From contig CAIKRV010000059.1 in NCBI GenBank assembly GCA_903829945.1, forward strand, positions 5,897 to 69,896: a DNA stretch of 64,000 nucleotides, given 5' to 3'. The stretch comes from an uncultured bacterium (GTDB lineage Bacteria; Bacteroidota; Bacteroidia; CAILMK01). The position numbers were made by a program, and so were the translations under genes. The first letter of the stretch is position 1; the number at the start of each line of letters is the position of its first letter. The notes beneath the pieces were generated by a model. It ran no database searches. It was not told the origin of the DNA and saw only the letters and a program-made list of their open reading frames with translations. Shown piece after piece: positions 44,185-59,511 of the stretch.

Positions 44185-46650
44185 ATGAGCAAAAACAATA
44201 AAAAGACATCCGCGAACACTGCTCCAAGTACTAAAAGTATCAAAATGGATATTGAATCCATGGGAGCAAAAGGGGAATTGAAGGGCATTTTAGGTCAAAG
44301 CCATATTCAAGCATTGATCATTTTTATTTTAGCATTTTGCGTTTATGCCAATACGATCCCTAATTTTTATGTCCAGGATGATGCCGCGGCCATTCAAGAA
44401 AATAAACTAGTGCTTCAAGGGGTACACGGTATCCCAAAGCTATTAACTACCGGATTTATTTATGGTTTAACCGGCTCCAATGAAGGTACCTACCGACCGG
44501 TATCTTTAATTTCTTATGCCGTTGAATATAGCTTATGGGGAGAAAATCCTCATTTAAGTCATTTAATTAATATTTTGCTTTTTGCCATTACGGTAGTTCT
44601 ATTATTTTATACCCTGCGCCTATTATTTGGTAAAAACTATGGATTATTATGTTTTATAACGGCATTATTATATGCAGCACATCCCATCCATACCGAAGCT
44701 GTATCAAATATAAAAAGCAGAGATGAAATTTTAAGCTTTTTATTTGCCTTAATTAGCCTATTCAGCTTTTTAAAAATTGCAAATAATTATAAAGGTAATT
44801 TCCTGACTAAAGATTATGCGTGGATGGTAGTAGGCATGCTTTCCTTCTTCGTTTCTATGGCATCCAAAGAAGGGACATTGCCATTTATCATTATAATACC
44901 TATGACCATTTATTTCTTTAAAAACTCAGAAAAGAAATTAATTATCGGAAGTATTATTAGCGTAGGTGTAGTGGTTTGCGCCTATTTAATGGTTCGTTAT
45001 GAATTATTTGGCAGCATCAAAAATGTACATGTCACTATTCAAAAAACGGACAATATTTTAGCTTATTCTGATGGTGGCAGACAACCTTTAGCAACTGCAT
45101 TTGTAATTCTTATCAGATATATTATTTTATTAATCTTTCCACATCCTTTATCCTATGATTATTCATTTAATCAGTTACCCTTATATAAATGGACCGATTG
45201 GCAGGCCATTGGCTCATTGCTCTTAATCATAGGAATATTGATTTTAGGAATTATTAAAATTATGAAGAAAGAAATTATTGGATTTGCAATTTTATTTTTC
45301 TTTTTAACCATTTCTGTAGTTGCCAATATTTTTATGATTATTGGTTCCTCCATGGCTGAACGTTTTTTATACATGCCATCAGTGGGTTTTTGCTTAATAT
45401 TATCCTATTTTATTGTTAAGTATTTATTCAGGCCCAATCAAGAAGGAAAAATCTCCAATATAGGTTGGATAATTAGTTTGGTAATTTTAAGCTTATATAG
45501 CATTAAAACATTTTCCAGAAATAAAGATTGGAAAGATAATATTACCTTGTATACGGAAGATGTAAAACATGCTCCCAAAAGCGCACGAACACACTACTCT
45601 TTGGGTACACAATTAAATGTTAATGCTCGAATTGAAAAAGACACGGCCAAACGTAGAGAAATGAGATTGGTGGCAGAACAGGAATTATTAAAGGCATTAG
45701 AAATAAATCCAGAGTATCCGGATGCCATGATAAATTTAGGAAACGTGTATCATGAATTAGGTGAGTTTGATAAAGAATTGGAAATGCTTAGCCATGTAAG
45801 CAGTGATGCAAAAGGAACTGCTCAAGTTTTATTTAATTCCGGCAATGGATTTTTAAGTAAAAATGATTTTAGAGGAGCCATCAGACAGTATAGATCAGCA
45901 TTAAATTTAAAGCCAGACATAACGATGCCTTATGTCAATATGGGCATCGCTTATTCTTCTATAGGAATGAAAGATTCAGCTATCTATTTTTTAGAGAAAG
46001 CCATTGAATTGGATCCAAAACTTATTCAAGCGTATATAAATTTAGGTTCTGCCTATACTGCAAAAGGGAATCAATATATTCCTAAAGCGATTGATATTTA
46101 TAATAGGGCATTAAAACTCGATCCGAAATCCGGTGAAACATATATTAACTTAGGTTCGGCGGAAATTAATGCTAAAATGTATACCCAAGCGATGGTGCAT
46201 TTACAAAAAGGCATTTTATTAAAACCGGATGCACCGGAAGCATATTATAATTTAGGTTATGCTTATCAGTTGCAAAAAAATTATAATGAAGCGCTTTCCT
46301 ACTATGCAAAAGCATTAAAAATAAAAGATACTTACTCGGAAGCTTATTTAAATACCGGCTCATGTTATGAGTACATGAACCAATTTGAAAAAGCAATTAG
46401 CTATTTTAATAAAGTAGTAAATTTAAACGTAAACCTTTTACAAGCTTATATGAATTTGGGATACTGTTATACCAAACTCAACAAAGCAAATGATGCTATT
46501 AACTATTATAATAAAGCTACAGAACTTTCTCCTAACGAATATCGCGCTTATGCAAGTTTGAATGGTATTTATAAAAAATTAGGAGATAAAGCCAAAGAAA
46601 AATATTATTATGACAAGTATATGGCGGCGAAAAAAGCAAATGGTGAATAA
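44185..46650 (+). CDS. TMTC-like GT-C membrane glycosyltransferase with C-terminal TPR array
   Basis: YVQDDAAAIQEN (DD loop), YRPVS, HPIHTEAVSNIKSRDE, SKE, PLSYDYS, AERFLYMPS, followed by about 10 TPR repeats. Confidence 0.85.
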   Translation: MSKNNKKTSANTAPSTKSIKMDIESMGAKGELKGILGQSHIQALIIFILAFCVYANTIPNFYVQDDAAAIQENKLVLQGVHGIPKLLTTGFIYGLTGSNEGTYRPVSLISYAVEYSLWGENPHLSHLINILLFAITVVLLFYTLRLLFGKNYGLLCFITALLYAAHPIHTEAVSNIKSRDEILSFLFALISLFSFLKIANNYKGNFLTKDYAWMVVGMLSFFVSMASKEGTLPFIIIIPMTIYFFKNSEKKLIIGSIISVGVVVCAYLMVRYELFGSIKNVHVTIQKTDNILAYSDGGRQPLATAFVILIRYIILLIFPHPLSYDYSFNQLPLYKWTDWQAIGSLLLIIGILILGIIKIMKKEIIGFAILFFFLTISVVANIFMIIGSSMAERFLYMPSVGFCLILSYFIVKYLFRPNQEGKISNIGWIISLVILSLYSIKTFSRNKDWKDNITLYTEDVKHAPKSARTHYSLGTQLNVNARIEKDTAKRREMRLVAEQELLKALEINPEYPDAMINLGNVYHELGEFDKELEMLSHVSSDAKGTAQVLFNSGNGFLSKNDFRGAIRQYRSALNLKPDITMPYVNMGIAYSSIGMKDSAIYFLEKAIELDPKLIQAYINLGSAYTAKGNQYIPKAIDIYNRALKLDPKSGETYINLGSAEINAKMYTQAMVHLQKGILLKPDAPEAYYNLGYAYQLQKNYNEALSYYAKALKIKDTYSEAYLNTGSCYEYMNQFEKAISYFNKVVNLNVNLLQAYMNLGYCYTKLNKANDAINYYNKATELSPNEYRAYASLNGIYKKLGDKAKEKYYYDKYMAAKKANGE

Positions 46651-46673: not shown

Positions 46674-46708
46674 AAAAAGCTTGCAACAATATTGCAAGCT
46701 TTTTTTTT
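46674..46708 (+). terminator. Intrinsic terminator after the TMTC-like gene
   Basis: AAAAAGCTTGCAA-CAATA-TTGCAAGCTTTTT followed by more T. Confidence 0.82.
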
Positions 46709-46896: not shown

Positions 46897-46930
46897 TGAC
46901 ATTAATCATATTTGAATATGACACATGTCA
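46897..46930. promoter_or_regulatory. Two tandem TGA-N6-TCA dyads (CRP/FNR-family-like boxes)
   Basis: TGACATTAATCA (46897-46908) and TGACACATGTCA (46919-46930), 22 bp apart, upstream of the redox operon. Confidence 0.5.
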
Positions 46931-46999: not shown

Positions 47000-47986
47000 A
47001 TGGAAAACGGATCTGAAAAAACACAAGATGAAATCCCAAATTCGAATCGACGGAATTTTTTAAAAATCGGATTATTAACGTCCGGTGCAGTTGCTGTTGG
47101 TTCATTAGGAATTCAAAAGCTTTTTTCCAAGGATGAAACCGGTAAAGGCGGAGTTAAAACTATAGTCCACACTAATGATGGTAAAGTTTATGAAGCCAAT
47201 ACTGCTCATATGAAAGAATGTGAAGTTACACCGGTTTCAAACGAAGAAGCAAGGCGCGGAATTCCAGGCAAAAAATTTGTAATGGTCATTGATGAAGCCA
47301 AATGTGACGGCTGTAAAAAATGTACCGAAGCATGCCAATCCATGCATTATATTCCTTCCGATAGGGAGTGGATAAAAGTATTTAAAATGCAAGACTCTGA
47401 AAGTACCCAACCGTACTTTTTCCCAAAACCATGTTTCCACTGCGATAATCCTCCATGTACCAAAGTATGTCCGGTGAATGCTACCTTTAAAAGGCAGGAC
47501 GGAATTGTTTTGGTAGATAATGAACGTTGCATCGGATGTCGTTCATGCATGGCAGCTTGCCCCTATTCAACCAGGTTCTTTAATTGGACCCGGCCTGAAA
47601 ATCCTCCTGCAATGGCTGGTATCACTTATTCTCCTGAACAAGGATTCCCGCGCAAAGTCGGTACTGTAGAAAAATGTGATTTCTGTCCTCATATGGCCAG
47701 AGAAGGCAAATTACCTGCTTGCGTTTCAGGATGCCCTATGAATGCAATTTATTTTGGTGATCAAAATGAAGATGCAGTAACCAATTCTTCCGGTGTTACG
47801 GTTCGTTTAAGTCAACTTTTAGAAGATAATGCCGGTTACCGCCATTTAGAAGAATTAGGTACTGAGCCACGTGTTTATTACTTACCGGCCAAAAACAGAA
47901 AATATCCTAAACCGGAAATGAATGGTAAGGAAGAAAAACATGCTGAGAAAAAAGCCAGCACGGAAATGTCAGGTATGAATATGTAA
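47000..47986 (+). CDS. TAT-signal 4x[4Fe-4S] ferredoxin subunit (NrfC/PsrB/DmsB family)
   Basis: SNRRNFLK twin-arginine motif; CDGCKKC..AC, CFHCDNPPC..VCP, CIGCRSCMAACP, CDFC...CVSGCP. ATG 47000 preferred over TTG 46961. Confidence 0.92.
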   Translation: MENGSEKTQDEIPNSNRRNFLKIGLLTSGAVAVGSLGIQKLFSKDETGKGGVKTIVHTNDGKVYEANTAHMKECEVTPVSNEEARRGIPGKKFVMVIDEAKCDGCKKCTEACQSMHYIPSDREWIKVFKMQDSESTQPYFFPKPCFHCDNPPCTKVCPVNATFKRQDGIVLVDNERCIGCRSCMAACPYSTRFFNWTRPENPPAMAGITYSPEQGFPRKVGTVEKCDFCPHMAREGKLPACVSGCPMNAIYFGDQNEDAVTNSSGVTVRLSQLLEDNAGYRHLEELGTEPRVYYLPAKNRKYPKPEMNGKEEKHAEKKASTEMSGMNM

Positions 47987-48003
47987 ACTAATTAGAAATT
48001 AAA

Positions 48004-49461
48004 ATGGAACAAAATACTATAAGCTCTAACATTTCTAATGGAACCATGAAAACCGGTTCGCATGAAGCAATGGTAAAAGCAAAAATTGAAACTATTCGTG
48101 AAGATAGTTTGCGCCCTACCAGAGTATGGGGTAAATCAACAAAATTATTTCTTGGATTCCTATTTTGCGTTGCAGGATGGGGCCTTTTTGCTTACGTATA
48201 TCAATGCATCCATGGATTGGGTGCAACAGCTATGCGTAATTATGTATCCTGGGGATTATATATATCCACCTTTGTATTCTTTATTGGTATAAGTCACTCA
48301 GGAACCTTGGTTTCTGCAATACTTAGAATTACCAAACAAGAATGGAGAAGACCAATTACTCGTTCTGCGGAATTGATGACTTTTGTGTCATTATTATTTG
48401 GTGGTATTATGCCAATATTAGATTTAGGACGTCCTGATCGTTTACAAAATTTAGTAATACATGGACGTTTACAATCACCACTAATTTGGGACGTTATTTG
48501 TATTTCCACCTATTTTGTTGGAAGTACCATGTTTTTGTATTTACCTATGATACCGGATATGGCACTCTGCAGAGACCGCTTACCTGAAGGTTCCTCAAAA
48601 TTTAAAAAATGGATATATACTAAATTGGCTATTGGATGGACAGGTACAACCAGTCAATGGCATAGGTTGGAAAAACTAATGAACATCATGACCATTATTA
48701 TTATTCCAATTGCAGTATCTGTGCATACGGTAGTAAGCTACATATTTGCAATGACCTTAAGACCGGGATGGGATAGCACCGTATTCGGTCCTTACTTCGT
48801 AGCCGGTGCTCTATATAGTGGTTCTGCAACGGTTATTATAGCCATGGCAGTATTCCGTAAGTTATACGGTTTAGAAAAATACATTACTCCAAGGCATTTT
48901 GATTTAATGGGAAAAATAGTTTTGGTATTAACCTTAGTCTATGCTTACCTCAACTTAAATGAATATTGGATTCCTGCCTATAAGATGACCACTTCTGAAG
49001 GACATTTATTAAAAGATTTATTTTACGGTACCTATTCCAAAGTATTCTGGACATTGCAATTTGGCACAGTGCTTCTTCCTATTGTTATCATGTCCATTCC
49101 TAAAGGAAGAAGAATAAAACCTTTGATCTTTGCATGTATAGTAATTGTAATTGGTGCTTGGATTAAACGATATATAATTGTTGTACCTACCTTATTGCAC
49201 CCATACATGCCCATTCAACAAGTTCCTACCGATTGGTCTTCCTATTTTCCTAATTGGGTAGAATGGTCAGTTACCTTTGGTGCGCTATCCGGCATCTTTA
49301 TCGTAATTACATTATTCTCCAAGTTATTCCCAATGATGGCAGTTTGGGAAGTGGAAGAAGGCGTAGAAATTGATGAAGACAAACTTCTGGCCATTGAAAT
49401 AAGAGATAAACGTGCCGCAGAAAAAAGAGGAGATATATCTGCTCCTATTGCAGCCAATTAA
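48004..49461 (+). CDS. NrfD/PsrC-family integral membrane quinone-interacting subunit, ActC-like
   Basis: WGLYISTFVFFIGISHSGTLVSAILR, RSAELMT, DLGRP, SPLIWDV, AVSVHTVVS, PGWDSTVFGPYFVAGALYSG; about 10 TM. Confidence 0.9.
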   Translation: MEQNTISSNISNGTMKTGSHEAMVKAKIETIREDSLRPTRVWGKSTKLFLGFLFCVAGWGLFAYVYQCIHGLGATAMRNYVSWGLYISTFVFFIGISHSGTLVSAILRITKQEWRRPITRSAELMTFVSLLFGGIMPILDLGRPDRLQNLVIHGRLQSPLIWDVICISTYFVGSTMFLYLPMIPDMALCRDRLPEGSSKFKKWIYTKLAIGWTGTTSQWHRLEKLMNIMTIIIIPIAVSVHTVVSYIFAMTLRPGWDSTVFGPYFVAGALYSGSATVIIAMAVFRKLYGLEKYITPRHFDLMGKIVLVLTLVYAYLNLNEYWIPAYKMTTSEGHLLKDLFYGTYSKVFWTLQFGTVLLPIVIMSIPKGRRIKPLIFACIVIVIGAWIKRYIIVVPTLLHPYMPIQQVPTDWSSYFPNWVEWSVTFGALSGIFIVITLFSKLFPMMAVWEVEEGVEIDEDKLLAIEIRDKRAAEKRGDISAPIAAN

Positions 49462-49472
49462 TAACATTAAAA

Positions 49473-50390
49473 ATGAAAATAATGAAAAAGTTTATAATAC
49501 TACCACGGAATATAACAACTTCTTTGTTTGCTCTTACTTTAATGCTTATTGGTTATGCTGTATCTGCACAAACAAGTGAAAAAATGAATCCAAGCATTCA
49601 GTTATCAGTTACTACCAAGGCTGATCATAGTATGAGTGCTTCCGTATTTGTAACGGCAAATAGTAAGGCTGTTAAAAAAAGACAACCGGCAGGAAATGCT
49701 AAAATTAACTTTTATACTACGGCTAATGGAACTGAAAAACTATTAGGAAGTACCGTTACTGAAGGTAATGGTAAAGCTGAAATTACTTTTAAAGAAGCAT
49801 TACTACTTGATACCGGTAATAACTATACTGTAATTGCTAAAATTGAAAATGACCCGATGTATGAAAATACTGATGAAGACGTTCATTTCAAGAAAGCAAA
49901 TTTGACCATTAATTTAAAACAACAAGATACTTTAAAGTTAGCTATTGCTAAAATTACGAGCACAGATAAAAACGGCAAAGAAATTCCGGTTAAAAATACT
50001 GAACTAAGTTTCTTTATACAACGCTTATTCGGTGCTATGCCAATTGTAGAGGATAACAAAGTAACTACCGATGAAAATGGAGAAGCCACCTTTACTTTTC
50101 CAAAATCAATAACCATTCCCGGCGATGAGAAAGGGAATTTTATAGTCGTTGCTAAACTTATCGACAATGAAACCTATGGGAATATAGAAACCCATGGAAA
50201 AATCAATTGGGGCGTACCCGTTCCATTTGAAAAGAATCCTTTTCCACGTGCATTGTGGGAAGCAAACGCTCCTCCTGCCCTAGTGATTACTATTTGTTTA
50301 ATATTTGGAAGTGTATGGTCTATTTACTTCTTTATGTTCATGCAATTAGGTAAGATTAAAAAGGACAAAGGAATGCCAAGAGTATCCTAA
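49473..50390 (+). CDS. Hypothetical exported beta-rich protein with C-terminal membrane anchor
   Basis: Signal peptide (..VSAQ), Ig-like repeats (TEGNGKA / TDENGEA), C-terminal TM followed by KIKK; no heme motif. Confidence 0.7.
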   Translation: MKIMKKFIILPRNITTSLFALTLMLIGYAVSAQTSEKMNPSIQLSVTTKADHSMSASVFVTANSKAVKKRQPAGNAKINFYTTANGTEKLLGSTVTEGNGKAEITFKEALLLDTGNNYTVIAKIENDPMYENTDEDVHFKKANLTINLKQQDTLKLAIAKITSTDKNGKEIPVKNTELSFFIQRLFGAMPIVEDNKVTTDENGEATFTFPKSITIPGDEKGNFIVVAKLIDNETYGNIETHGKINWGVPVPFEKNPFPRALWEANAPPALVITICLIFGSVWSIYFFMFMQLGKIKKDKGMPRVS

Positions 50391-50437
50391 TAAAACAAGA
50401 AAACAATTTTATATCAACAATTTAATTAATTATAGTC

Positions 50438-51745
50438 ATGGGAATGTTAAAAAACAAGTTTCTCCAAATTGCCTTGCTGGCAGGCATGATCTTCAGCTTT
50501 AGTTATTGTACAAAACACAATCAAGTATTAGATCTACAATCAACAGCCACCACTCCAAATGGAACATTATTAACCTCAATTTCCGGTAGCCCTAAAGTTT
50601 TAGGTTTAGGTGAAGGTACCTGGGATGGAACCATAGAATCCGTTTGGGCAAACGCTCCTAAGCTAACAGTTACGGCAACCGTACCTGACTTAGGGAATAA
50701 CACTTTTCCCGGTTTTGTAGGAAATTCAACCAATGTAACATTACGTTCATGCTATGATGCGCAAAACATCTACTTCTTAGTAGAATGGGATTGCGATAAA
50801 AACATGAATAGTGCTTGGTGGTATTTTGATCCTGCAACATCATTATGGAAACAAGAAACAGCAGCTCCTACTTTCGATGCAAACGGTATTATTACTCGGA
50901 ATGGATTTGTTCAAGATCAATTTGCATTTATTTGGAATATTAATAATTCCTGTGCGGATTTTGCATCTCAATCATGTTATGCCACTTGTCATGCTAATAC
51001 ACCTTCCATGACAGTTGATCCAAAAACAGGAAACATAATTACAACTCCTGTATATAGTGGAAGTATGCGTACCAGCGCACCGAATGAAAAATTAGATGTA
51101 TGGCGTTGTAGAATGATTACTGCTACCAATTACAATCAAATTAATGATTACTATATGGACTGGAATAATGGTACCGCCAATTCTAATGGATTCCATAAAG
51201 ATGATCAAGGAAGTCCACTGGCCAATCAATTTGGTGGTGGTACCAGTAACAAACAATCTTTAAAAATGAATAATGCTGCCAAAACTAAAGTTTCAGTACC
51301 TATTTGGTTTATTCCGGGCAAATCTTATTACAATGCTATTTTAGCCAGTGATACTACCGGTAATGCTAAATTTATTATCGCAGTAGATTCCAATGGAGTA
51401 TTACATTATGCCAATACCCGCGGTGGTGCAGAAGCAGGAACAATAGATCCAAATTCCGGAACTGATTATCAAAGAAACGGTGCCGGTGATGGACAATTCT
51501 GTATTCCTGGTTCAGTATTCGGACCATTTGTTGGTGGTATGGCTGATATCAGCGCTAATGCATATTATACAGGCAAAGGATGGAGATTACTTATTAAACG
51601 CACTCTTAAAACAAGCGATGTACTAGAACAAGATGTTGATTTTTCCAGCTTAAAAGATCAAGACTTTGGTATCGGATCATTCTTCAATACAGCAGATAAT
51701 CAACATGCCATTACTGCATATTTGAAATTGACGTTTAAAAAATAA
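50438..51745 (+). CDS. Lipoprotein with ethylbenzene-dehydrogenase-gamma-like (EB_dh/DOMON) domain and CX3CH motif
   Basis: Lipobox SFSYC; WANAPKLTV, YDAQNIYFLVEW, DQFAFIW, SCYATCH, EKLDVW, WRLLIKRTL. Confidence 0.72.
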   Translation: MGMLKNKFLQIALLAGMIFSFSYCTKHNQVLDLQSTATTPNGTLLTSISGSPKVLGLGEGTWDGTIESVWANAPKLTVTATVPDLGNNTFPGFVGNSTNVTLRSCYDAQNIYFLVEWDCDKNMNSAWWYFDPATSLWKQETAAPTFDANGIITRNGFVQDQFAFIWNINNSCADFASQSCYATCHANTPSMTVDPKTGNIITTPVYSGSMRTSAPNEKLDVWRCRMITATNYNQINDYYMDWNNGTANSNGFHKDDQGSPLANQFGGGTSNKQSLKMNNAAKTKVSVPIWFIPGKSYYNAILASDTTGNAKFIIAVDSNGVLHYANTRGGAEAGTIDPNSGTDYQRNGAGDGQFCIPGSVFGPFVGGMADISANAYYTGKGWRLLIKRTLKTSDVLEQDVDFSSLKDQDFGIGSFFNTADNQHAITAYLKLTFKK

Positions 51746-51813
51746 CAGACATAACTTTATTGAAAAGTATAGCATAAGTAATGCTACACATCAACAAATT
51801 AAAAATTAAGATT

Positions 51814-52215
51814 ATGTCAAGAAATAAATTTAAACTAATATTTGCCTTTATTGCCGCAAGTTTACTGATCATCACCGCATGTGTGAAAGATGTAACAGTA
51901 ACACTTACGGATAATAAAGAGGTAACCAAGAAGGTAAGTTTTTCAAAAGATTTGGTACCCTTATTTGTAGCCAATTGCGCGATCAGCGGATGCCATGTTG
52001 CGGAAAAACAAGTACCTGACTTGGAAAAAGATGTAGCGTACAAGTCGCTCATGAATTTAAACCTAATCGATGTAGGTACTCCTGAGAATAGCACATTGTA
52101 CAAAAGATTGACTGGTAAAATTACTCCTGCAATGCCAGCCGGTAAACCCACCAATCCATCCAATATCAATAATCTGGTGCTTGCATGGATTAAGCAAGGA
52201 GCAAATAACAATTAA
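51814..52215 (+). CDS. Small lipoprotein cytochrome c-like protein with CX4CH motif
   Basis: Lipobox ITAC; VSFSKDLVPLF..NCAISGCH; MP (possible axial Met); WIKQGA, resembling planctomycete-type cytochrome domains. ATG 51814 preferred. Confidence 0.72.
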   Translation: MSRNKFKLIFAFIAASLLIITACVKDVTVTLTDNKEVTKKVSFSKDLVPLFVANCAISGCHVAEKQVPDLEKDVAYKSLMNLNLIDVGTPENSTLYKRLTGKITPAMPAGKPTNPSNINNLVLAWIKQGANNN

Positions 52216-52226
52216 AAACAACAGTA

Positions 52227-53129
52227 ATGGAAAAACAGAAATATAATTTCAAAAAAATTGTCAAGGTATTAGCCCTGCTAATTATTGTCTTGAATGTAAA
52301 TTACGGATTTGCTCAAGATAGTTCCGCAGCAAAAAGTGCTAAACCAAAACCGGTTAAAGGAACCTTTGCCAGCTCCTTGCTTATCGACAATGAAACCGTA
52401 TATGTACCTAACCAAGGTTCAATGATTATGACCATCCAACATAGATTTGGAGATGCAAATCTTTACCAAGATATGTATGGATTATTCGCAATGTCCAGTA
52501 TGAGAATAGGTGTAGCTTATGTACCTATTAATAACCTTCAATTAGGTTTTGGACTGACCAGCTATAATAATACTTGGGATATAAATCTTAAATACGCCCT
52601 CATGCGCCAATCCGAAGAAGGTGGTTGGCCAATCAGTATTACTTATTATGGAAATTGGGCCATCGATACCAGAGATAAATCCAATTTCGTTTCCAACTAT
52701 GACAGGTTTACTTATTTTCATGAAATCATGTTTGCAAGAAAAGTAAACGATAATTTCTCTATACAAGTAGCTCCAACCTTAACTTATTTTAATAATGTAG
52801 TTGGATACATCAACTCTCAAGGAGATATTTTACCTACCATGAACAACCAACATTTTGCCTGTTCATTTATTGGCAGGTATAAATTGACTGACAAATTCGG
52901 TATTATAGCAGATTATGATCAACCGTTAACACAACATACTACCAATAATCCGCATCCAAACGTTGCAGGTGGTGTAGAATTTGAAACCTCCGGACACTCC
53001 TTCCAATTATTTTTCTCCAATTTTGGATTTTGTTTGCCTCAGTTAAACAATTTTCTAAATCAAAATGATTATACTAAGAAAGGAAATTATTTGTTCGGCT
53101 TTAACATAACCAGGAAGTTTAACTTATAA
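52227..53129 (+). CDS. DUF5777-like outer-membrane beta-barrel protein
   Basis: Signal peptide (..GFAQ), F.SS.LID.ETV, IQHRFG, EFETSGHSFQL.FSN, terminal FGFNITRKF. Confidence 0.8.
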   Translation: MEKQKYNFKKIVKVLALLIIVLNVNYGFAQDSSAAKSAKPKPVKGTFASSLLIDNETVYVPNQGSMIMTIQHRFGDANLYQDMYGLFAMSSMRIGVAYVPINNLQLGFGLTSYNNTWDINLKYALMRQSEEGGWPISITYYGNWAIDTRDKSNFVSNYDRFTYFHEIMFARKVNDNFSIQVAPTLTYFNNVVGYINSQGDILPTMNNQHFACSFIGRYKLTDKFGIIADYDQPLTQHTTNNPHPNVAGGVEFETSGHSFQLFFSNFGFCLPQLNNFLNQNDYTKKGNYLFGFNITRKFNL

Positions 53130-53142
53130 TTTATTTATTAAT

Positions 53143-53547
53143 ATGAAAATCAAATCAGCAACAATTTTCACAATAGCATGTACCTTAATCTTTGGTGTAA
53201 CGCTATTATTTGCACAAGGAAAACCATGGCAAGTACCTGATAAAAATGCCAAAGCGGTTAATCCTGTAAAAGCAGACGCAAAATCATTAGCCAACGGCAA
53301 AAAACTATATGTTCAATATTGTCAAGATTGCCACGGCAAAAAAGGTAAGGGTGATGGATCCAAGGCACCGGATGTAAAAACTACGGTTGCTGATCTAACA
53401 GTTGCTTCAGTGAAAGCAGAATCCGACGGTTCTTTATTTTATAAGATTTCTGAAGGCCGTAATGATATGCCACGTGCAAAAAAGGATCTTCCTGATCCAA
53501 GCGATATCTGGAGTATCGTAAATTATGTAAGATCACTTCAGAAATAA
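53143..53547 (+). CDS. Monoheme class I cytochrome c
   Basis: Signal peptide, NPV..DAKSLANGKKLY, CQDCH, GKGDG, NDMP (axial Met), WSIVNYVRSL. Confidence 0.9.
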   Translation: MKIKSATIFTIACTLIFGVTLLFAQGKPWQVPDKNAKAVNPVKADAKSLANGKKLYVQYCQDCHGKKGKGDGSKAPDVKTTVADLTVASVKAESDGSLFYKISEGRNDMPRAKKDLPDPSDIWSIVNYVRSLQK

Positions 53548-53576
53548 AAATCAAAATCTTAAAACCAATAACCATG

Positions 53577-53611
53577 AGTAGGCCTTTAGAAATAAAGGCC
53601 TACTTTTTTTT
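53577..53611 (+). terminator. Terminator closing the redox operon
   Basis: AGTAGGCCTTT-AGAAAT-AAAGGCCTACT followed by T run. Confidence 0.85.
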
Positions 53612-53653
53612 ATAGTCTAATGTTAACTATTAGTTTTATTGGGAAACCAATTT

Positions 53654-53689
53654 AAAAAGAAAGCCTATCTTTCGATAGGCTTTCTTTTT
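53654..53689 (-). terminator. Terminator closing the czc-like operon
   Basis: AAAAAGAAAGCCTATC-TTTC-GATAGGCTTTCTTTTT. Confidence 0.85.
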
Positions 53690-53697
53690 ATCAAGAA

Positions 53698-56600
53698 CTA
53701 AAATTCTTTTTTGAGTCTCTTATCTGTTTTTCGATATGCCCATGCAAATATTAATGGGAATACCCATAAGGAAAATAACATAGCACATAAAATACCTCCT
53801 ATAACTACCCTAGCAAGCGGTCTGGAGCTTTCTGAGCCAATACCGTGGGACATGGCTGCTGGCAACAAACCAACTGCTGCCATTAAGGCTGTCATTAATA
53901 CGGGACGTATTCTTTCATTTACACCTAATTTCAAGGCCATATAAAGTGAATCTTGTTGACCTTTAATTTTATTGAGGTTTTCCTTAAAAATAGTAATGAG
54001 GATAATCCCATCTTGAATACATATACCAAATAAGCATATAAATCCGATACCCGCAGAAATACTAAAATTAGTACCGGTAATATGTAAGGCTAAAATACCA
54101 CCCACTATGGCAAAAGGAACATTTAAAAAGACCAATCCGGCATCTTTAAAATTCCCAAACATACTTAAGAGTAATATAAATATAAGCAATAAACTAATCG
54201 GTACCACTTGGGCCAATCTTCCTTGAGCTCTTTGTTGATTTTCAAAATCCCCCTGCCAAGCCATGTTATAACCTCTTTTTAAGGTTACTTTATCGCCCAC
54301 CTTCTTTTGGGCTTCTGCAATAGTACTGCCCATATCCCTTCCTCTGACAGAGAATTTCAGCGCAGAGTATCTGGAATTATCATCTCTAAAAATTAAACAA
54401 GGACCGGTTTTCTTAGATATTTCAGCAATAGACTTAATCGGAACTTTTGAACCATTTTGAGTAGGCACCAACAAATTTCCGATATCATTAGGATTGCTTC
54501 TGAATTCCTCCGGCAACCTTACACGAATATCAAATGTTTTTATGCCTTCATATAAGGTTGAGGCTGCTTGTCCGCCAATAGCCATGCCTAATACTGAATT
54601 AGCATCAGCTGTGGCAACGCCGTACAATGCCATTTTTTGTTGATCGAGATTAACATCAATTTCCGGCTGCCCTATATTATGAATAACGCCTAAATCTTCT
54701 ATCCCTTTTACATCTTTTAAAATATTATAAACATCTTTAATCTTGCTCTCCATATAGTTTAAAGAATCCCCATAAACTTTTACGCATATAGAACCCTTAA
54801 CACCGGATACGGCCTCTTCTACATTATCCATTATCGGCTGAGAAAAGTTAAGATTAACGCCGGGAATCGTTTCCAACTTGGCATTCATTTTTTCAATAAG
54901 CTCATCCTTGGTCAGCTTGGATTTCCATTCTTCCGAAGGATACAATAATACATCAAACTCATTATTATAAAAGCCTGCTACATCAGTACCATCATCCGGT
55001 CTGCCAGTTTGCGAAACGACTTTTTTAACTTCAGGGAAAGTCATTACTATTTTCCGTACTTGCCGTGCTACCTCTACCCCTTTAGAAAGTGATGCACTAT
55101 AAGGCAATTGCACACGAAGCCATATGGCACCTTCATTTAATTCAGGCAAGAATTCCGAACCCAAAAATCTAAAGGAGTATAATCCAACCACCATAATAAC
55201 TAAAGCAATACTAATGACTAATTTTTTACGCTTAAAGGAAGCAATAAAACCGCCGAGCATTATTTTATTTAAAAAATGGACAAACGGATTGTGTCTTTCT
55301 CTTACATTCTTATTTAATAAAAGCGATATGAGTACAGGAACTATGGTCAGCGTAGCAATTAAGGAACCTAATAAAGCAAATCCAAGCGTAAATGCCAATG
55401 GAGAGAACATTTTTCCTTCCACTTTCTGAAAAGAGAAAATAGGAATAAGCGCAATAATGATAATTACCTTAGTAAAGAAAATTGCCTTACCGCGTTGTGC
55501 ACCAATTTTTCTTATCCAACCACCTTTAGCTCGCCTGTTAAATACCTCCTTGCCCATCGTTTCCGACTGGTGCGCCAGAAAGGCGAAGGCACCCTCCACC
55601 ATTACGACGGCTCCATCAATGATAATACCAAAATCTACTGCCCCCAGGGAAAGTAAGTTGGCAGACATCCCCATTAAATTTAAACATATAAAGGAAAACA
55701 GCAAGGCTATGGGGATAATAAGGGCTACGATAAGGGTGGTACGCCAATCAAATAAAAATATTGATATAAGTACAATAACCAATAAAATTCCTTCAACCAA
55801 ATTATGCATAATCGTATGCGTGGCGTATGAAATCAAATCAGCACGATCGTAAAATGGAATTATTTTGGTGTCTGCAGGTAGTACATCGCGATTAAGTTTC
55901 GCAATTTCTTTTTTAACCCCGTCCACTACCTCTGAAGGATTTTCACCTTTACGCATCACCACAATACATTCTACTACATCATCCTCATCAGTCACTTCTC
56001 TATTGCCTTTAGCATTAATTAAGGCATCACCTCTTCCAATCCAACCCAAACGAGGAATATTGGATATTTCAACCGTGGCTACATCCCTGACTAATAATGG
56101 CACCCCATTATTATTTTGGATAATAACATTTTTGATTTCATTGATGTCATTAAGCAGCCCAATACCTCGAACCACAAATGCCTCATCATTTTCAACAATC
56201 ATATCACCACCAATATTAATATTGGTTTTTTGAACCGCGGTAAATACATCTAAAGGAGTAATCCCTAATGAGGTTAGTTTTTCAGGATTAACTTTTATTT
56301 CATACGCCTTTGATTTTCCTCCAAAACTGGTGACATCAGCAATACCGGGTACTGCTTTCAATCGTCTTTCAATCACCCAATCTTGCATGGTTTTAAGCTC
56401 CCTGGCATCACGGAAGGAACTTCTTAAAGTATAACGGAAAATTTCACCGGTGGGCCCAATGGGCGGTTGAACGGAAGGATTTACATTCGGAGGCAAGTTG
56501 GCATTGGAAAGTAAATTCATTACTTGTTGCCTCGCCTGCGGATCCTTTACATTATCTTCAAATAATATTTTAATAAAAGATAAACCAAATATACTGGTGG

Positions 56601-56859
56601 AACGTAAACTGGTTTTGTGCTGCACCGGATTCATTGCTATTTCAATAGGAATAGTAACGAACTTTTCTACTTCTTCAGCACTTCTGCCAGGCCATTGTGT
56701 AATTACATCTATTTCTGTATTGGTAACATCGGGAAATGCTTCGATAGACATTCCTCTAAAAATAATGACGCCGGATACGATAAGTAATGCGGCAGCAAAA
56801 ATTATAAAGTACTTATTCTTTATCGAGAAACCGACTACCTTTTTTAAGAATTTATTCAT
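53698..56859 (-). CDS. CusA/CzcA-family heavy-metal efflux RND permease
   Basis: EAFPDVT, GRSAEEVE, SLGAVDFGIIIDGAVVMVE, FLPELNEG, RIRPVLMTA, PLARVVIGG. Confidence 0.94.
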   Translation of the reverse strand: MNKFLKKVVGFSIKNKYFIIFAAALLIVSGVIIFRGMSIEAFPDVTNTEIDVITQWPGRSAEEVEKFVTIPIEIAMNPVQHKTSLRSTSIFGLSFIKILFEDNVKDPQARQQVMNLLSNANLPPNVNPSVQPPIGPTGEIFRYTLRSSFRDARELKTMQDWVIERRLKAVPGIADVTSFGGKSKAYEIKVNPEKLTSLGITPLDVFTAVQKTNINIGGDMIVENDEAFVVRGIGLLNDINEIKNVIIQNNNGVPLLVRDVATVEISNIPRLGWIGRGDALINAKGNREVTDEDDVVECIVVMRKGENPSEVVDGVKKEIAKLNRDVLPADTKIIPFYDRADLISYATHTIMHNLVEGILLVIVLISIFLFDWRTTLIVALIIPIALLFSFICLNLMGMSANLLSLGAVDFGIIIDGAVVMVEGAFAFLAHQSETMGKEVFNRRAKGGWIRKIGAQRGKAIFFTKVIIIIALIPIFSFQKVEGKMFSPLAFTLGFALLGSLIATLTIVPVLISLLLNKNVRERHNPFVHFLNKIMLGGFIASFKRKKLVISIALVIMVVGLYSFRFLGSEFLPELNEGAIWLRVQLPYSASLSKGVEVARQVRKIVMTFPEVKKVVSQTGRPDDGTDVAGFYNNEFDVLLYPSEEWKSKLTKDELIEKMNAKLETIPGVNLNFSQPIMDNVEEAVSGVKGSICVKVYGDSLNYMESKIKDVYNILKDVKGIEDLGVIHNIGQPEIDVNLDQQKMALYGVATADANSVLGMAIGGQAASTLYEGIKTFDIRVRLPEEFRSNPNDIGNLLVPTQNGSKVPIKSIAEISKKTGPCLIFRDDNSRYSALKFSVRGRDMGSTIAEAQKKVGDKVTLKRGYNMAWQGDFENQQRAQGRLAQVVPISLLLIFILLLSMFGNFKDAGLVFLNVPFAIVGGILALHITGTNFSISAGIGFICLFGICIQDGIILITIFKENLNKIKGQQDSLYMALKLGVNERIRPVLMTALMAAVGLLPAAMSHGIGSESSRPLARVVIGGILCAMLFSLWVFPLIFAWAYRKTDKRLKKEF

Positions 56860-56878
56860 TTCTGATTACTTTAAAAAA

Positions 56879-58003
56879 TTAATTATTCAGTTCTCCATAA
56901 ATCTGCAAAGCTTGTGAGGCAATAATTCTATCTCCAATCTTCAAACCTGATTTTAAATATACTTTATTTCCAAATGTATTCAGTACTTCTACAGGTGAAA
57001 TGGATGCATTTCCTTTGCCTTCGTATTTTACCACATAATATTGGCTATGGTCATACACCAAGGCTTTATCAGGAACACACAAAGTTTGTTTATGTTCCGG
57101 ATCGGAAACCGTTACCCTGGCAAACATCTCAGGTTTTAAAATATAATCAGGATTTGGCAATACGATTCTTACCTTAATAACCTTACTGGTTGGATCAAGT
57201 ACGTTAAGTATTTTGTCTATTTTTCCGGTAAACACTCTATCAGGAGCCGATAATGTTCTTACTTCTACATTATCCCCAACATGTACTTGATCTATATTCG
57301 CTTCATATACATTCGCCTGTACCCAAACGTCTTTTAAATCAGAGATAGTAAATAAATTGGTAGTATTATCAGCTCTGATAAATGAATTATTGGTAATATT
57401 TTTTTGAACGATAAATCCGCTAATTGGCGATTTTATAATAAAATCTCCCTGAACATTATTACCATTAATTTTTAAAATCTTTTTTACCATTTCTAATTGT
57501 GCTACTGCTTGGTCGTAATTGGTTTGCGCAGTATTCACATCCAATATGGAAGCTAATCCACTTTTGTACAAATCCTGCATGGCCTCCAATTGTTTTTTAG
57601 TAGTTTTAACATTAGTTTCTGCTACTACTAAATTATTGGCATAACCAGCCATTTCACTACTTTTTACTACTGCCAAAGTTTGTCCCGCAGATACGTAATC
57701 GCCCAATTGCACTTTTATATCTTGGATATTACCACTCACCAGTGAATAAATATTCACTTGCTTATCTTGGTTAAAATCAACAATAGCAGTGAGGGTGATG
57801 GCATTCAATAAAGGACAAGTATTGACGGTATCAATTTTCAAGGTTTTAAGTAATGAATCAGGTATGGTGTACTTTACTTTTTCCTCTTGTTTTTTTTCAG
57901 TTTCACTGCAACCTTGTGCAAGGAAGGCAAGGATACTTAATAAAACAATTACGCTAAATCTGTTTGTCCTTTTCACTTTATATGTATTTATTTTTAAATT
58001 CAT
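56879..58003 (-). CDS. RND efflux periplasmic adaptor (CzcB-like lipoprotein)
   Basis: Lipobox AQGC; V.LGD.V..GQ.LA, IKSPISG, ISDLKDVWV.ANVYE, LKPEMFA. Confidence 0.92.
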   Translation of the reverse strand: MNLKINTYKVKRTNRFSVIVLLSILAFLAQGCSETEKKQEEKVKYTIPDSLLKTLKIDTVNTCPLLNAITLTAIVDFNQDKQVNIYSLVSGNIQDIKVQLGDYVSAGQTLAVVKSSEMAGYANNLVVAETNVKTTKKQLEAMQDLYKSGLASILDVNTAQTNYDQAVAQLEMVKKILKINGNNVQGDFIIKSPISGFIVQKNITNNSFIRADNTTNLFTISDLKDVWVQANVYEANIDQVHVGDNVEVRTLSAPDRVFTGKIDKILNVLDPTSKVIKVRIVLPNPDYILKPEMFARVTVSDPEHKQTLCVPDKALVYDHSQYYVVKYEGKGNASISPVEVLNTFGNKVYLKSGLKIGDRIIASQALQIYGELNN

Positions 58004-58015
58004 GATTAGATGAGA

Positions 58016-59323
58016 TTAGTTGTTAAAAAAACTTGTCCCTGTTAAATAATTTAGATTTTCAAGTGCATTTACGCGATTAAATAAAATCGTATTGAGTTGC
58101 ACAATATTTTGCTTATAAGAATCATAGAAGTTCAAGAAATTAAGTAAATTCACATTTCTCTTCATATAATTCTCTGCCATGGATTTTGCCAAATCATTAA
58201 ATCGACCGGCAAAACTTGGATCAATTTCTTTATACAATTTATCCGCATCAATTGCTTTTTGAAAACCTCTGGTAACTTGCTCCTCCAAAGTTTTATGCGT
58301 TAAATCTAATTGCGTTTTATTATAATCAACCATAATACGAGAATAACGTATATTGCCCTGGTTACGATTGAAAATCGGAATATCAATAGCAATGCCGATG
58401 GAATTAAAGTTTGGAATATAACTTCCTTGCCTATCGTATCCTAAGGCAGCATTAATATCGGGCACCGCTATCGCCTTTTGCAAAGAATAATTAGCCTGAC
58501 TTAATTCGAGGTTATCTTTTGCAATTCGCATATCCCCTCTATTAATATTTGCTGAATCAATAAGCAATTGTAAAGAAACCGATAATGGATTAATGGCTTG
58601 TACCTTTTGGGTATCCACTACAGGTTTAATATAGGTAGTTGGCTGTAATTGCAATAATAATCTTAATTGGCTTTCCTGATCATTCAAGCTATCAATCAAG
58701 GTTTGGTATTCATTCATTAAGGAATATAGTTGTGCTTGTACACGAACTACATCCGCCTCAGCAACGTAACCTTTACCTTCTTGCTGTTTGTAAGCGGCTA
58801 CTATGGTTTTAAGACTACCAATTTCCTGATTATAGACCTTCTCGGTTTCACGCAAGTAATAAATATTAAAAAATGAAGTGCGTAAAGCTAATTTTAAGGA
58901 AAGTAAAGTTGCATATAAGTTATCCTCAGATAATTTATAATTCACCTTAGCAATATGAACCTGCTTACTGATTTTACCTGCCAATTGAATTAATTGGGAA
59001 ATTTGCCCGGCCTCTTCACCATTCACGGCATCCGTTTGTAACCATTTCTTCGTTTGAGAATTGTATAAACCCTGAGCAATATTTAAATTCGGATTCGGCC
59101 AAAGTTTGGCCTGAAGAATTAATGCTTCAGTTGCACTTACATTGTATTTTAAAGAAAGCAATTGTAAATTCTTCTTTAGAAAAATATCTTCAGCCTCCTT
59201 CAAACTAATGCTTGTACTATCCTTGATGAGCGCATCATTAAGCTTTACTTGCCCAAATAATTGGGGCCCGAGTAACAAGGCAAGTATAATTGGAATAACG
59301 CTTTTTATATTTCTAATTTTCAT
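58016..59323 (-). CDS. TolC-family outer-membrane channel (CzcC-like)
   Basis: ISLKEAE, QAKLWPNP, AVPDI, IDIPIFNRNQGNI; first gene of the CBA operon. ATG 59323 preferred. Confidence 0.9.
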   Translation of the reverse strand: MKIRNIKSVIPIILALLLGPQLFGQVKLNDALIKDSTSISLKEAEDIFLKKNLQLLSLKYNVSATEALILQAKLWPNPNLNIAQGLYNSQTKKWLQTDAVNGEEAGQISQLIQLAGKISKQVHIAKVNYKLSEDNLYATLLSLKLALRTSFFNIYYLRETEKVYNQEIGSLKTIVAAYKQQEGKGYVAEADVVRVQAQLYSLMNEYQTLIDSLNDQESQLRLLLQLQPTTYIKPVVDTQKVQAINPLSVSLQLLIDSANINRGDMRIAKDNLELSQANYSLQKAIAVPDINAALGYDRQGSYIPNFNSIGIAIDIPIFNRNQGNIRYSRIMVDYNKTQLDLTHKTLEEQVTRGFQKAIDADKLYKEIDPSFAGRFNDLAKSMAENYMKRNVNLLNFLNFYDSYKQNIVQLNTILFNRVNALENLNYLTGTSFFNN

Positions 59324-59511
59324 TCTTGGGATTATAATTTTATAGATTTCAAGTTTGAGCAAACCTTTTCAACTTTTAGCCGGCACATTTGATTATTGCA
59401 TTTAATTGGAAACCAATTCAAACAATAAATTATACCGCCACTACAGTGTAAAAAGTAGCATTCTATCAAATATCGTGCAAAAGAATCTTTGCATAATATC
59501 TTAATACTACC

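Follow-up and report, generated by a model that had tools for sequence, protein, structure and literature searches.

The window analysed here, a 64-kb stretch of contig CAIKRV010000059.1 from an uncultured member of the Bacteroidota, carries at positions 47000-53547 a seven-gene operon for iron-sulfur (FeS), NrfD-type membrane, heme and beta-barrel proteins, and raises the question of where the electrons handled by such a set of proteins would come from and where they would go. A first-pass annotation of this DNA had proposed an uncharacterised low-heme electron-transfer pathway with every tier from the inner-membrane quinone to the outer membrane, analogous to porin-cytochrome complexes of the MtrCAB type. 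We followed up this proposal by sequence comparison and structure prediction, and every result reported here is computational. With about even confidence, we favor a two-module electron chain in which the menaquinone pool would exchange electrons with an ActC-like/FeS/immunoglobulin (Ig)-like module, this module with a class-I cytochrome c, and the cytochrome c with outer-membrane-anchored monoheme cytochromes around a barrel. The inner-membrane half of the system is a new variant of the NrfD-family complexes, and the outer-membrane half has no characterised counterpart; the operon as a whole is probably a new respiratory side-branch peculiar to Bacteroidota.

Seven consecutive open reading frames (ORFs) on the plus strand lie between two terminator-like hairpins, separated by gaps of 11-47 nt, or of 68 nt between g4 and g5 if g5 starts at ATG 51814, the start in public gene calls. 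The layout first annotated (seven same-strand genes with gaps below 70 nt, bounded by terminators) was confirmed, with hairpins at 46674-46704 and 53576-53605. Pfam likewise recovered all of the domains that had been called, namely Fer4_11 with a twin-arginine translocation (TAT) signal, NrfD, EB_dh, DUF5777 and cytochrome c, and for g3 gave no more than weak Ig-like matches. The most likely start of g1 is ATG 47000 (MENGSEK...SNRRNFLKIG); the ORF listing extends to TTG 46961. The features of the operon are as follows.

46674..46704, no strand: bidirectional, terminator-like hairpin, a 13-14 bp stem followed by a T-run, which ends the upstream 821-aa tetratricopeptide repeat (TPR) gene; 5' boundary
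46919..46930, no strand: candidate operator, the palindrome TGACACATGTCA located 81 nt before the g1 ATG
47000..47986, + strand: g1, TAT-exported periplasmic 4x[4Fe-4S] ferredoxin of the NrfC/PsrB/ActB-C-terminal type (Fer4_11, TAT signal)
48004..49461, + strand: g2, ActC-like NrfD-family integral membrane quinol/quinone subunit (Pfam NrfD, ActC match, residue mapping)
49473..50390, + strand: g3, Ig-like periplasmic protein with an N-terminal signal/anchor and a C-terminal transmembrane (TM) helix (weak Big_1/bMG3)
50438..51745, + strand: g4, lipoprotein with an EB_dh/CBM9-like beta-sandwich and CX3CH (Pfam EB_dh, AlphaFold2 (AF2), Foldseek)
51814..52215 (alternative start 51781), + strand: g5 ("c5"), putative monoheme c-type cytochrome lipoprotein with CX4CH (profile homology)
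52227..53129, + strand: g6, predicted DUF5777 outer-membrane 12-strand beta-barrel (Pfam DUF5777, AF2 model)
53143..53547, + strand: g7, class-I monoheme cytochrome c with CXXCH (Pfam Cytochrome_CBB3, Cytochrom_C)
53576..53605, no strand: terminator hairpin followed by a T-run; 3' operon boundary

Scanning 185,579 species-representative genomes with an EB_dh profile yielded 279 genomes with an EB_dh relative, and 80 of these were fetched as loci (numbered in the style L001; 1.33 Mb in total). Gene order was taken from tblastn and ORF clustering, and 40 loci of at least 20 kb were counted as long. Because the loci were picked via the EB_dh protein, this sample of contexts is biased; three look-ups based on the barrel gave an agreeing result. 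The taxonomy covers the 80 fetched loci among the 279 genomes, and all 80 are Bacteroidota (Chitinophagaceae, Mucilaginibacter, Saprospiraceae, Niastella vici, and a metagenome-assembled genome of Chitinophaga pinensis). Ferruginibacter and Sediminibacterium are among the carriers, and Niastella vici, Flavisolibacter and Mucilaginibacter are cultured ones.

The gene set was strongly syntenic across these Bacteroidota species, as the first-pass annotation had anticipated. All seven genes lay on one strand in two main circularly permuted orders, FeS-NrfD-Ig-(cytochrome)-EB_dh-c5-barrel-(cytochrome) and EB_dh-c5-barrel-cytochrome-(sTAT)-FeS-NrfD-Ig, where sTAT is a small protein described below. 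FeS and NrfD genes were present in 39 of the 40 long loci and the full seven-gene set in 35 of 40, and independently chosen DUF5777 proteins, one from Cyclobacteriaceae, had the same gene set in 3/3 contexts, which together place the arrangement far beyond chance. No molybdopterin subunit or other recurring catalytic subunit was found in or beside the operon in the 80 loci when all unassigned ORFs within the operons and all ORFs of at least 600 aa within 3 kb were listed, nor in three further DUF5777 contexts; the lack of such a subunit, first remarked on in the window, extends to these loci. Neither the window operon nor the operon in the 80 loci contained a multiheme protein.

The seven genes behaved as two co-inherited units, an inner-membrane FeS-NrfD-Ig trio and a presumed outer-membrane lipoprotein-c5-barrel triad. 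The triad was tandemly duplicated without the trio in L004 and L058, the trio was duplicated without the triad in L013, L027 and L054, and the triad occurred with a cytochrome c gene and no FeS-NrfD genes nearby in L086 and L019. In at least 13 triads (L029, L037, L042 (6948-7739), L044, L047, L050, L053, L060, L061, L072, L073, L077 and L079), the place of the EB_dh protein before c5 and the barrel was taken by a His-rich, YceI-like lipoprotein of about 263 aa (Pfam YceI 3e-5). The window lacks this YceI-like triad, which elsewhere often has genes for a 174-aa membrane protein and a 173-aa lipoprotein at its sides. The c5 and barrel paralogues co-diverged with the type of lipoprotein encoded upstream.

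The inner-membrane trio

The 328-aa g1 protein, with 16 Cys in four cluster motifs, matched Pfam Fer4_11 (2.8e-23) and carried a TAT signal. Its closest solved relative was PsrB (2vpw_B, 2e-32); ArrB and the C-terminus of ActB also matched, the match to ActB covering only the C-terminal FeS part (residues 797-1024 of 6f0k_B). DsrO was the nearest NCBIfam model, and the NCBIfam equivalog cutoffs were all missed (DsrO 189 bits against 200, DsrP 115 against 350, NrfC 147 against 378). With DsrO and DsrP below their cutoffs and no DsrMKJ-like genes nearby, the operon does not fall within the DsrMKJOP systems.

The g2 protein matched Pfam NrfD (PF03916) at 2e-35 (123 bits, the cutoff being 25.8, over positions 3-309 of the 313 in the profile) and aligned approximately end to end with ActC of Rhodothermus marinus (6f0k_C, 6e-70) and of F. 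johnsoniae (6btm_C, 1e-66), so that the ActC-like nature first ascribed to it was upheld; the match to ActF was weak (2.8e-7). For 64 members of the g2 family, we mapped the printed ActC alignment onto the residue list of a review of NrfD-family proteins (PMC8076601). The equivalents of ActC Ser164, Asp169, Tyr176, Ser180, Tyr270 and the gate residue Arg395 were invariant (64/64), and those of His247 and Glu326 were kept in 63/64. In g2 itself, Ser158 and Arg389 (each 64/64) correspond to the quinone-associated Ser164, which is strictly conserved in quinone-interacting NrfD members (PMC8076601), and to the mid-membrane gate Arg395. The quinol-site residues His139, Ser164, Asp169 and Asp253 are each more than 95% conserved in ActC (PMC8076601 Table 2). 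Relative to ActC, the g2 family had fixed changes of His139 to Asp (60/64), Asp253 to Ile or Leu (64/64), Tyr323 to Asn (55/64) and Glu394 to Lys (63/64). As judged from these residues, g2 represents a distinct ActC-like subfamily with a predicted remodelling of the quinol pocket and retention of the proton-pathway residues.

The trio can be compared with Alternative Complex III (ActABCDEF), which it resembles in the nearly full-length match of g2 to ActC with the N-side proton half-channel, Arg395, Ser164 and Asp169 kept, in the likeness of g1, with its TAT signal, to the C-terminal FeS domain of ActB, and in that electrons would presumably pass to c-type cytochromes including a lipid-anchored monoheme one. 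The operon differs in having no pentaheme ActA, no molybdopterin-like ActB1 domain, no ActF and no ActD, and g1 has 328 aa whereas ActB has about 950-1040. It also contains an Ig-like single-pass subunit and an outer-membrane barrel module, all four of its FeS motifs have four Cys, and the quinol-site set of g2 is incomplete, with Ser164 and Asp169 kept but His139 and Asp253 changed. With the NrfCD, PsrBC, DsrOP and QrcCD pairs, the trio shares a periplasmic four-cluster ferredoxin (PsrB being the best solved match of g1) and a cofactor-less NrfD-type subunit; however, the usual partners NrfAB, PsrA, DsrMKJ and QrcAB are absent, and the membrane subunit is of the ActC type.

A g1-type FeS gene adjoined the NrfD gene in all loci, with one NrfD gene per FeS gene, and homologues of g3 always lay after NrfD. 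Of these g3 homologues, 60/62 had a C-terminal TM helix. The g3 protein itself gave weak Big_1/bMG3 Pfam matches only and, by sequence, no match to solved structures. In L041 (13841-16066), a single 741-aa ORF joins NrfD in frame with the Ig protein, residues 7-447 matching g2 (5e-136) and residues 448-735 matching g3 (6e-29). Because of this fusion, g3 is probably a subunit of the FeS-NrfD complex, and thus the third subunit of the inner-membrane module.

The small sTAT protein, of about 89 aa and with a TAT-type signal, was encoded directly upstream of the FeS gene in loci of the permuted order (30 loci, e.g. L082:3268-3537). In its mature part it is similar to the N-terminal extension of the window's g1.

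Heme-motif lipoproteins and the DUF5777 barrel

The two heme-motif lipoproteins reported by the first-pass annotation are both present, with the refinement that their motifs are non-canonical, CX3CH in g4 and CX4CH in g5, and not CXXCH. The g4 protein matched Pfam EB_dh (PF09459) at 5e-21 (76 bits against a cutoff of 33.3). Its AF2 model (pLDDT 78) retrieved NxrC (7b04_C, 1.7e-8) and EbdC (2ivf_C, 2.8e-7, TMt 0.69) in Foldseek, followed by CBM9 modules; the AF2 models, made for g4 and g6, are of monomers. The lipobox Cys24, the motif C180-x3-C184-H185 and His423 were invariant in 20 sequences 46-56% identical to g4, and CX3CH was present in 80/80 homologues from the fetched loci. The g4 alignment contained no invariant Met beyond the initiator and no invariant Lys, and His423 lies 12 residues from the C-terminus, near the Lys-ligand position of EbdC/NxrC-type proteins.

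The known gamma subunits of the EB_dh fold hold a non-covalent heme b with Met/Lys axial ligands, are dedicated to electron transfer and are seated directly on beta subunits (PMC8387239). With EbdC and NxrC (and also SerC, DdhC and ClrC), g4 shares the beta-sandwich heme fold and its co-encoding with a four-cluster ferredoxin; it differs in its CX3CH and invariant C-terminal His, its additional length of about 200 residues, its lipoprotein nature and the lack of a molybdenum alpha subunit. We infer that g4 is an EB_dh-fold domain turned c-type cytochrome with covalent heme, for which His/His ligation is probable.

The g5 protein is a 133-aa lipoprotein, whose lipobox Cys, C-x4-C-H and Met-Pro (a putative axial ligand) were invariant in 61/61 aligned homologues; CX4CH occurred in 92/93 homologues. 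No Pfam cytochrome model was passed by g5, and PSCyt1 (PF07635) was matched by one of 38 c5 members, at E=0.13. A c5 profile built from 38 sequences reached two solved structures, FoxE (5mab_A, 5.4e-6) and, marginally, PccH (4rlr_A, 0.03). FoxE is the dihaem Fe(II)-oxidising cytochrome of Rhodobacter ferrooxidans SW2, which takes electrons from Fe(II), and PccH of Geobacter is needed for electron uptake from electrodes (PMC10654088; PMC13591261). An exhaustive phmmer search with c5 returned 1503 representatives, in many of which the domain is present in 2-6 tandem copies, and the relatives with canonical CXXCH scored strongly on Pfam PSCyt1 and PccH. For example, c5 matched P0241 at 7.7e-36, and P0241 itself matched PSCyt1 at 6.9e-44 and PccH at 2e-17. 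CXXCH and CX4CH variants also occurred in tandem in other lipoproteins.

The PSCyt1 assignment first suggested for g5 therefore holds at the superfamily level, through the CXXCH relatives, and fails for g5 itself against the Pfam model. With FoxE (5MAB), PccH (4RLR) and PSCyt1, c5 shares the signature f-x-k-D-(I/L)-x-P-(I/L)-F...C..CH ... MP ... W-I-x-Q-G-A; close c5 relatives reach PSCyt1 at 7e-44, and in all of them the module carries one heme and can occur in tandem arrays. It differs from them in being single-domain, lipidated and paired with DUF5777, in its CX4CH, and in lacking FoxY/FoxZ. By this comparison g5 is a divergent representative of the PSCyt1/PccH/FoxE superfamily with a single domain, and its CX4CH is a CXXCH lengthened by an insertion of two residues. 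The third heme protein, g7, matched Pfam Cytochrome_CBB3 (2e-10) and Cytochrom_C (1.5e-9), with CXXCH in 83/83 homologues, and is an ordinary class-I cytochrome c, periplasmic or N-terminally anchored. A heme motif occurred in no homologue of g3 (0/64) or g6 (0/96), the search in the DUF5777 proteins being for C-x(2-4)-CH.

The g6 protein matched Pfam DUF5777 (PF19089) at 4e-67 (226 bits) over all 247 profile positions (1-247 of 247), and its AF2 model (pLDDT 79) had 12 strands. The family had a mean column identity of 61%, unusually high for an outer-membrane protein, and g6 combines a conserved pre-barrel segment with near-invariant predicted external loops, e.g. YDQPLTQHTTNNPHPN. A heme-motif ORF lay directly upstream of 92/94 barrels for which there was enough upstream sequence. 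The Foldseek neighbours of g6 were generic barrels of 12-14 strands (FapF, NanC, KdgM, OmpG, COG4313 and autotransporter translocators) at 7-12% identity, with a weak fold likeness to FadL/TodX. MtrB was not among these Foldseek matches, and g6 had no sequence or specific fold likeness to MtrB or Cyc2. No cytochrome-barrel fusion was seen in the top 120 barrel homologues, the NrfD-Ig ORF of L041 being the one fusion recovered.

MtrB has 26 strands and Cyc2 has 16, as compared with 12 for g6, and an MtrB- or Cyc2-like barrel was rejected on strand number and Foldseek neighbours. As a 12-strand, heme-less barrel would be too narrow to sheathe a cytochrome, the analogy with MtrCAB or Cyc2 is not supported. 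What the operon has in common with MtrCAB, PioAB and MtoAB and with Cyc2 is a barrel gene that adjoins genes for c-type cytochromes, lipoproteins among them, together with a quinol module and a periplasmic carrier; like Cyc2, it is also low-heme, with one heme per protein. In contrast to MtrCAB, g4, g5 and g7 have single-heme motifs only and there are no decaheme cytochromes, and in contrast to Cyc2, g6 is heme-less and unfused to a cytochrome. A bis-His heme site within the barrel was tentatively set aside, since the invariant His72 and His257 lie at opposite strand ends in the secondary-structure map of the model.

The post-Cys sequences of the lipoproteins bear on where they reside. In Bacteroidota, the surface-export signal is C-X-K-(D/E)2-X after the lipid Cys, and KD alone is insufficient, a rule defined in Capnocytophaga, Bacteroides and Flavobacterium (PMC5080379). 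The window sequences, CTKHNQ and CVKDVT, do not conform to it. Both families nevertheless have conserved post-Cys motifs with Lys at +3, C-T-K-x-[DN]-Q-[VI]-[LI] in the EB_dh proteins and C-[YT]-K-x-x-T-[VLI] in c5, and the YceI-like lipoprotein, whose fold is unrelated to that of EB_dh, shares C-T-[HRK]-x-[DN] with the latter. These motifs may point to a common sorting or docking signal. A lipobox alone is no proof of an outer-membrane location, given that in F. johnsoniae the lipid-anchored subunits ActE and ActB belong to the inner membrane (PMC8552683); the near-obligatory linkage of c5 to the barrel argues for outer-membrane placement of the lipoproteins.

Proposed electron flow and its competing readings

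In the two-module chain that we favor, g2 would exchange electrons and protons with the menaquinone pool at the inner membrane, g1 would sit on g2 in the periplasm, and g3 would be their single-pass Ig-like partner, so that the inner module would amount to a pared-down Alternative Complex III, one that lacks ActA, ActF and the molybdopterin-like ActB1 domain. The g7 cytochrome, which is likely a shuttle between the modules, would ferry electrons through the periplasm to an outer-membrane module made up of the g6 barrel, g5 and a variable third lipoprotein, here the EB_dh-type g4. Flow would be outward, with oxidation of quinol, and the redox reaction would take place on the periplasmic face, with the barrel as a substrate channel or anchor, or at the cell surface. 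As no catalytic subunit is encoded, the hemes themselves may be the reactive sites, which would suit outer-sphere exchange with a redox substrate that is small and diffusible or extracellular; iron and quinones, humic or otherwise, are examples, and other metals are possible ones.

Several regulatory features recur with the operon. The palindrome TGACACATGTCA, an exact 12-bp TGACA-N2-TGTCA, is the only exact copy in the window, and the same motif recurs in L047, L050, L053, L059 and L080, at 90-150 nt before the first gene of the operon; five of the six exact copies in the 1.33 Mb of fetched loci occupy this position, suggesting regulation of the operon as one unit. Regulators of the Crp/Fnr family that bear an N-terminal Cys cluster and align end to end with FnrL are encoded near the operon in 20 loci and MarR regulators in 10 loci, and these neighbouring Fnr-type regulators suggest use mainly at low oxygen. 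Directly upstream of the operon in 3-4 loci are pairs of a NarX-like sensor and a GerE-type regulator (the kinase, with a P-box-like INLSGKGRFVSQR, is at L016:3394-5460, L020:2038-4026, L007:33-1557 and in one further DUF5777-context contig), a possible hint of nitrate or nitrite control of the operon. We also looked upstream of the operon for classical Fnr (TTGAT-N4-ATCAA) or CRP boxes and found scattered one-mismatch matches only, which were unconvincing. A sigma-70 promoter scan, with a model ill-suited to Bacteroidota promoters, gave 42 sites against 44 expected in shuffles, that is, no enrichment.

Several observations weigh against a two-module chain with outward flow. The fixed changes at the quinol site (His139 to Asp, Asp253 to Ile or Leu) mean that quinol oxidation by g2 is not guaranteed, and the PSCyt1 superfamily is so broad and generic that the likeness of c5 to FoxE and PccH carries little functional weight. 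It is their adjacency to the barrel that places g4 and g5, presumably, at the outer membrane; no Fnr or NarX regulator adjoins the operon in the window, and most carriers are described as aerobic heterotrophs.

We propose only tentatively, with confidence well short of even, the more specific view that the barrel, the CX4CH lipoprotein and an exchangeable third lipoprotein (EB_dh-type or YceI-like) form a minimal outer-membrane redox module of a new class, with no relation to Mtr, Pcc or Cyc2. A dedicated, pared-down Alternative Complex III would drive it, and abundant Bacteroidota of fresh water, peat and soil would use it to exchange respiratory electrons with iron, with quinones of humic or other origin, or with surface cytochromes of the type IX secretion system (T9SS).

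It is rather improbable that the operon encodes a true trans-outer-membrane conduit, in which surface-exported g4 and g5 would form with the barrel a minimal porin-cytochrome, like Cyc2 or MtrCAB, delivering electrons to Fe(III)/Mn(IV) oxides, humics or T9SS cytochromes. The strong post-Cys conservation, with Lys at +3 as in the export signal, is consistent with such a conduit, as periplasm-facing lipoproteins normally lack conservation of this kind (PMC5080379), and so is the sharing of C-T-[KHR]-x-[DN] by the unrelated EB_dh and YceI-like folds. The barrel's predicted extracellular loops are near-invariant, which is unusual for outer-membrane proteins. T9SS cargo proteins (with a choice-of-anchor V domain containing CXXCH, SprB repeats and Por_Secre_tail), which are possible cell-surface cytochromes, are encoded beside or inside the operon in about eight loci (L005:5339-6859, L007, L010, L026, L028, L031 and L054:17841-20675 among them). 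A second, unrelated pair, in which a 94-aa CXXCH lipoprotein cytochrome is encoded after an unannotated protein of outer-membrane type and about 400 aa, recurs beside the operon in seven loci (L005, L008, L014, L027, L031, L034 (9796-11007 and the next gene) and L054).

However, the barrel is 12-stranded, heme-less and too narrow for a cytochrome domain, and no redox centre is predicted in the membrane span, where tunnelling across would need one. The canonical K-(D/E)2 signal occurred in just 4/47 EB_dh and 6/89 c5 proteins, although the rule comes from other lineages and may not transfer, and the best 150 of 1503 c5 relatives contained no fusion with a barrel. For these reasons (12 strands, a heme motif in 0/96, lipoproteins mostly without the canonical export signal) the MtrCAB-type analogy drawn at first is not retained. 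Of the proposed series of tiers from inner-membrane quinone to outer membrane, the part leading up to the outer membrane remains plausible, but a crossing of that membrane is unsupported.

Inward flow, which we consider unlikely, would have the outer-membrane module oxidise Fe(II) or another donor entering via the barrel, with cytochrome c passing electrons to terminal oxidases and the ActC-like module running in reverse to reduce menaquinone. Both solved relatives of c5, FoxE and PccH, act in electron uptake (PMC10654088; PMC13591261), but this likeness is at the superfamily level only, and no FoxY/FoxZ homologues were seen among the recurrent neighbour families of the fetched loci. A pairing of a porin-cytochrome with an ACIII-like "Mob" complex has been proposed for Fe(II) oxidisers (PMC10654088, table), and the altered quinol site may reflect quinone reduction. 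Ferruginibacter and Sediminibacterium are carriers, and Fnr-type regulation would also fit micro-oxic Fe(II) oxidation. Against this, the hosts are heterotrophic with no evident need for reverse electron transport, and menaquinone reduction by Fe(II) is uphill.

We regard as slightly less likely still a purely periplasmic, miniature Alternative Complex III, in which g4 would dock on g1 in the manner of gamma on beta subunits and c5 would act as ActE, both at the inner membrane, forming a menaquinol:cytochrome c oxidoreductase that feeds NirK/S, NosZ or cbb3 at low oxygen, with the barrel as an accessory. The g1 protein is homologous to the EbdB, NxrB and NarH beta subunits, on which EB_dh-fold gamma subunits sit (PMC8387239), lipid-anchored ActE and ActB at the inner membrane have a precedent in F. 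johnsoniae (PMC8552683), and Fnr-like and NarX-like regulators are typical of denitrification genes. Yet the EB_dh-c5-barrel triad and the FeS-NrfD-Ig trio go separate ways in inheritance, duplication and gene order, and the triad can have no trio nearby; c5 is tied to the barrel (92/94); a heme-less YceI-like lipoprotein can stand in for EB_dh in paralogous triads; and the highly conserved outer-membrane barrel would be left unexplained.

That the triad is a device for uptake or sensing of heme, iron or hydrophobic ligands, merely co-located with a respiratory module, is very improbable: the weak likeness of the barrel to the hydrophobic-substrate channels FadL, TodX and COG4313, the replacement of EB_dh by lipoproteins of the polyisoprenoid-binding YceI-like family and the TonB receptor-lipoprotein pairs upstream in four loci would fit it, but the invariant covalent heme-attachment motifs and axial-ligand candidates in the lipoproteins indicate permanent cytochromes and not heme carriers, and class-I cytochrome c and FeS-NrfD genes are linked to the triad in 39/40 long loci.

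Flanking genes and significance

Upstream in the window, the operon adjoins a gene for an 821-aa protein (44185-46650) with many N-terminal TM segments and a C-terminal TPR region, a neighbour that is not kept in other loci. Downstream, on the minus strand, lies a convergent three-gene resistance-nodulation-division (RND) efflux operon (53698-59362; ACR_tran 1053 aa, membrane-fusion protein 374 aa, OEP 448 aa), with a terminator hairpin at 53653-53690, and beyond it are genes for a LysR regulator, an Sbt_1 transporter and isocitrate dehydrogenase. Two minus-strand ORFs, at 49883-50167 (94 aa, within g3) and 51735-52211 (158 aa, across g5), are of low complexity and look spurious. In other loci, a TonB-dependent receptor and a 217-aa lipoprotein are encoded immediately upstream of the EB_dh gene (L055:6517-9278, L067, L071 and L074).

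The operon is not described in the literature that we found on DUF5777, on EB_dh/PF09459 relatives, on extracellular electron transfer in Bacteroidota/Chitinophagaceae or on NrfD-like complexes; DUF5777 is mentioned in no paper found, and the review of the NrfD family (PMC8076601) does not contain this gene set. The initial view of the operon as an uncharacterised low-heme electron-transfer pathway is therefore sustained. It brings together three biochemical oddities, an EB_dh/DOMON-like fold with CX3CH, CX4CH in a PSCyt1-type domain, and a 12-strand barrel with an obligatory cytochrome partner. If our view of g4 is correct, it would be the first DOMON/EB_dh-fold domain with covalent heme c. 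The trio also offers a natural minimal ActC-FeS module for the study of how NrfD proteins couple quinol chemistry to proton movement, and the presence of the operon in cultured strains (Niastella vici, Flavisolibacter and Mucilaginibacter) makes these proposals directly testable.

In lakes, peat, soils and groundwater, Chitinophagaceae, Sphingobacteriaceae, Saprospiraceae and their kin rank with the most abundant heterotrophs, and the general view takes them for simple aerobes or fermenters. The operon would escape current marker-gene tools, because these look for Mtr, Cyc2, Omc and FoxE. If the proposed electron chain is true, these bacteria would possess an unrecognised respiratory option, in iron/humic redox cycling or in electron shuttling at oxic-anoxic interfaces.

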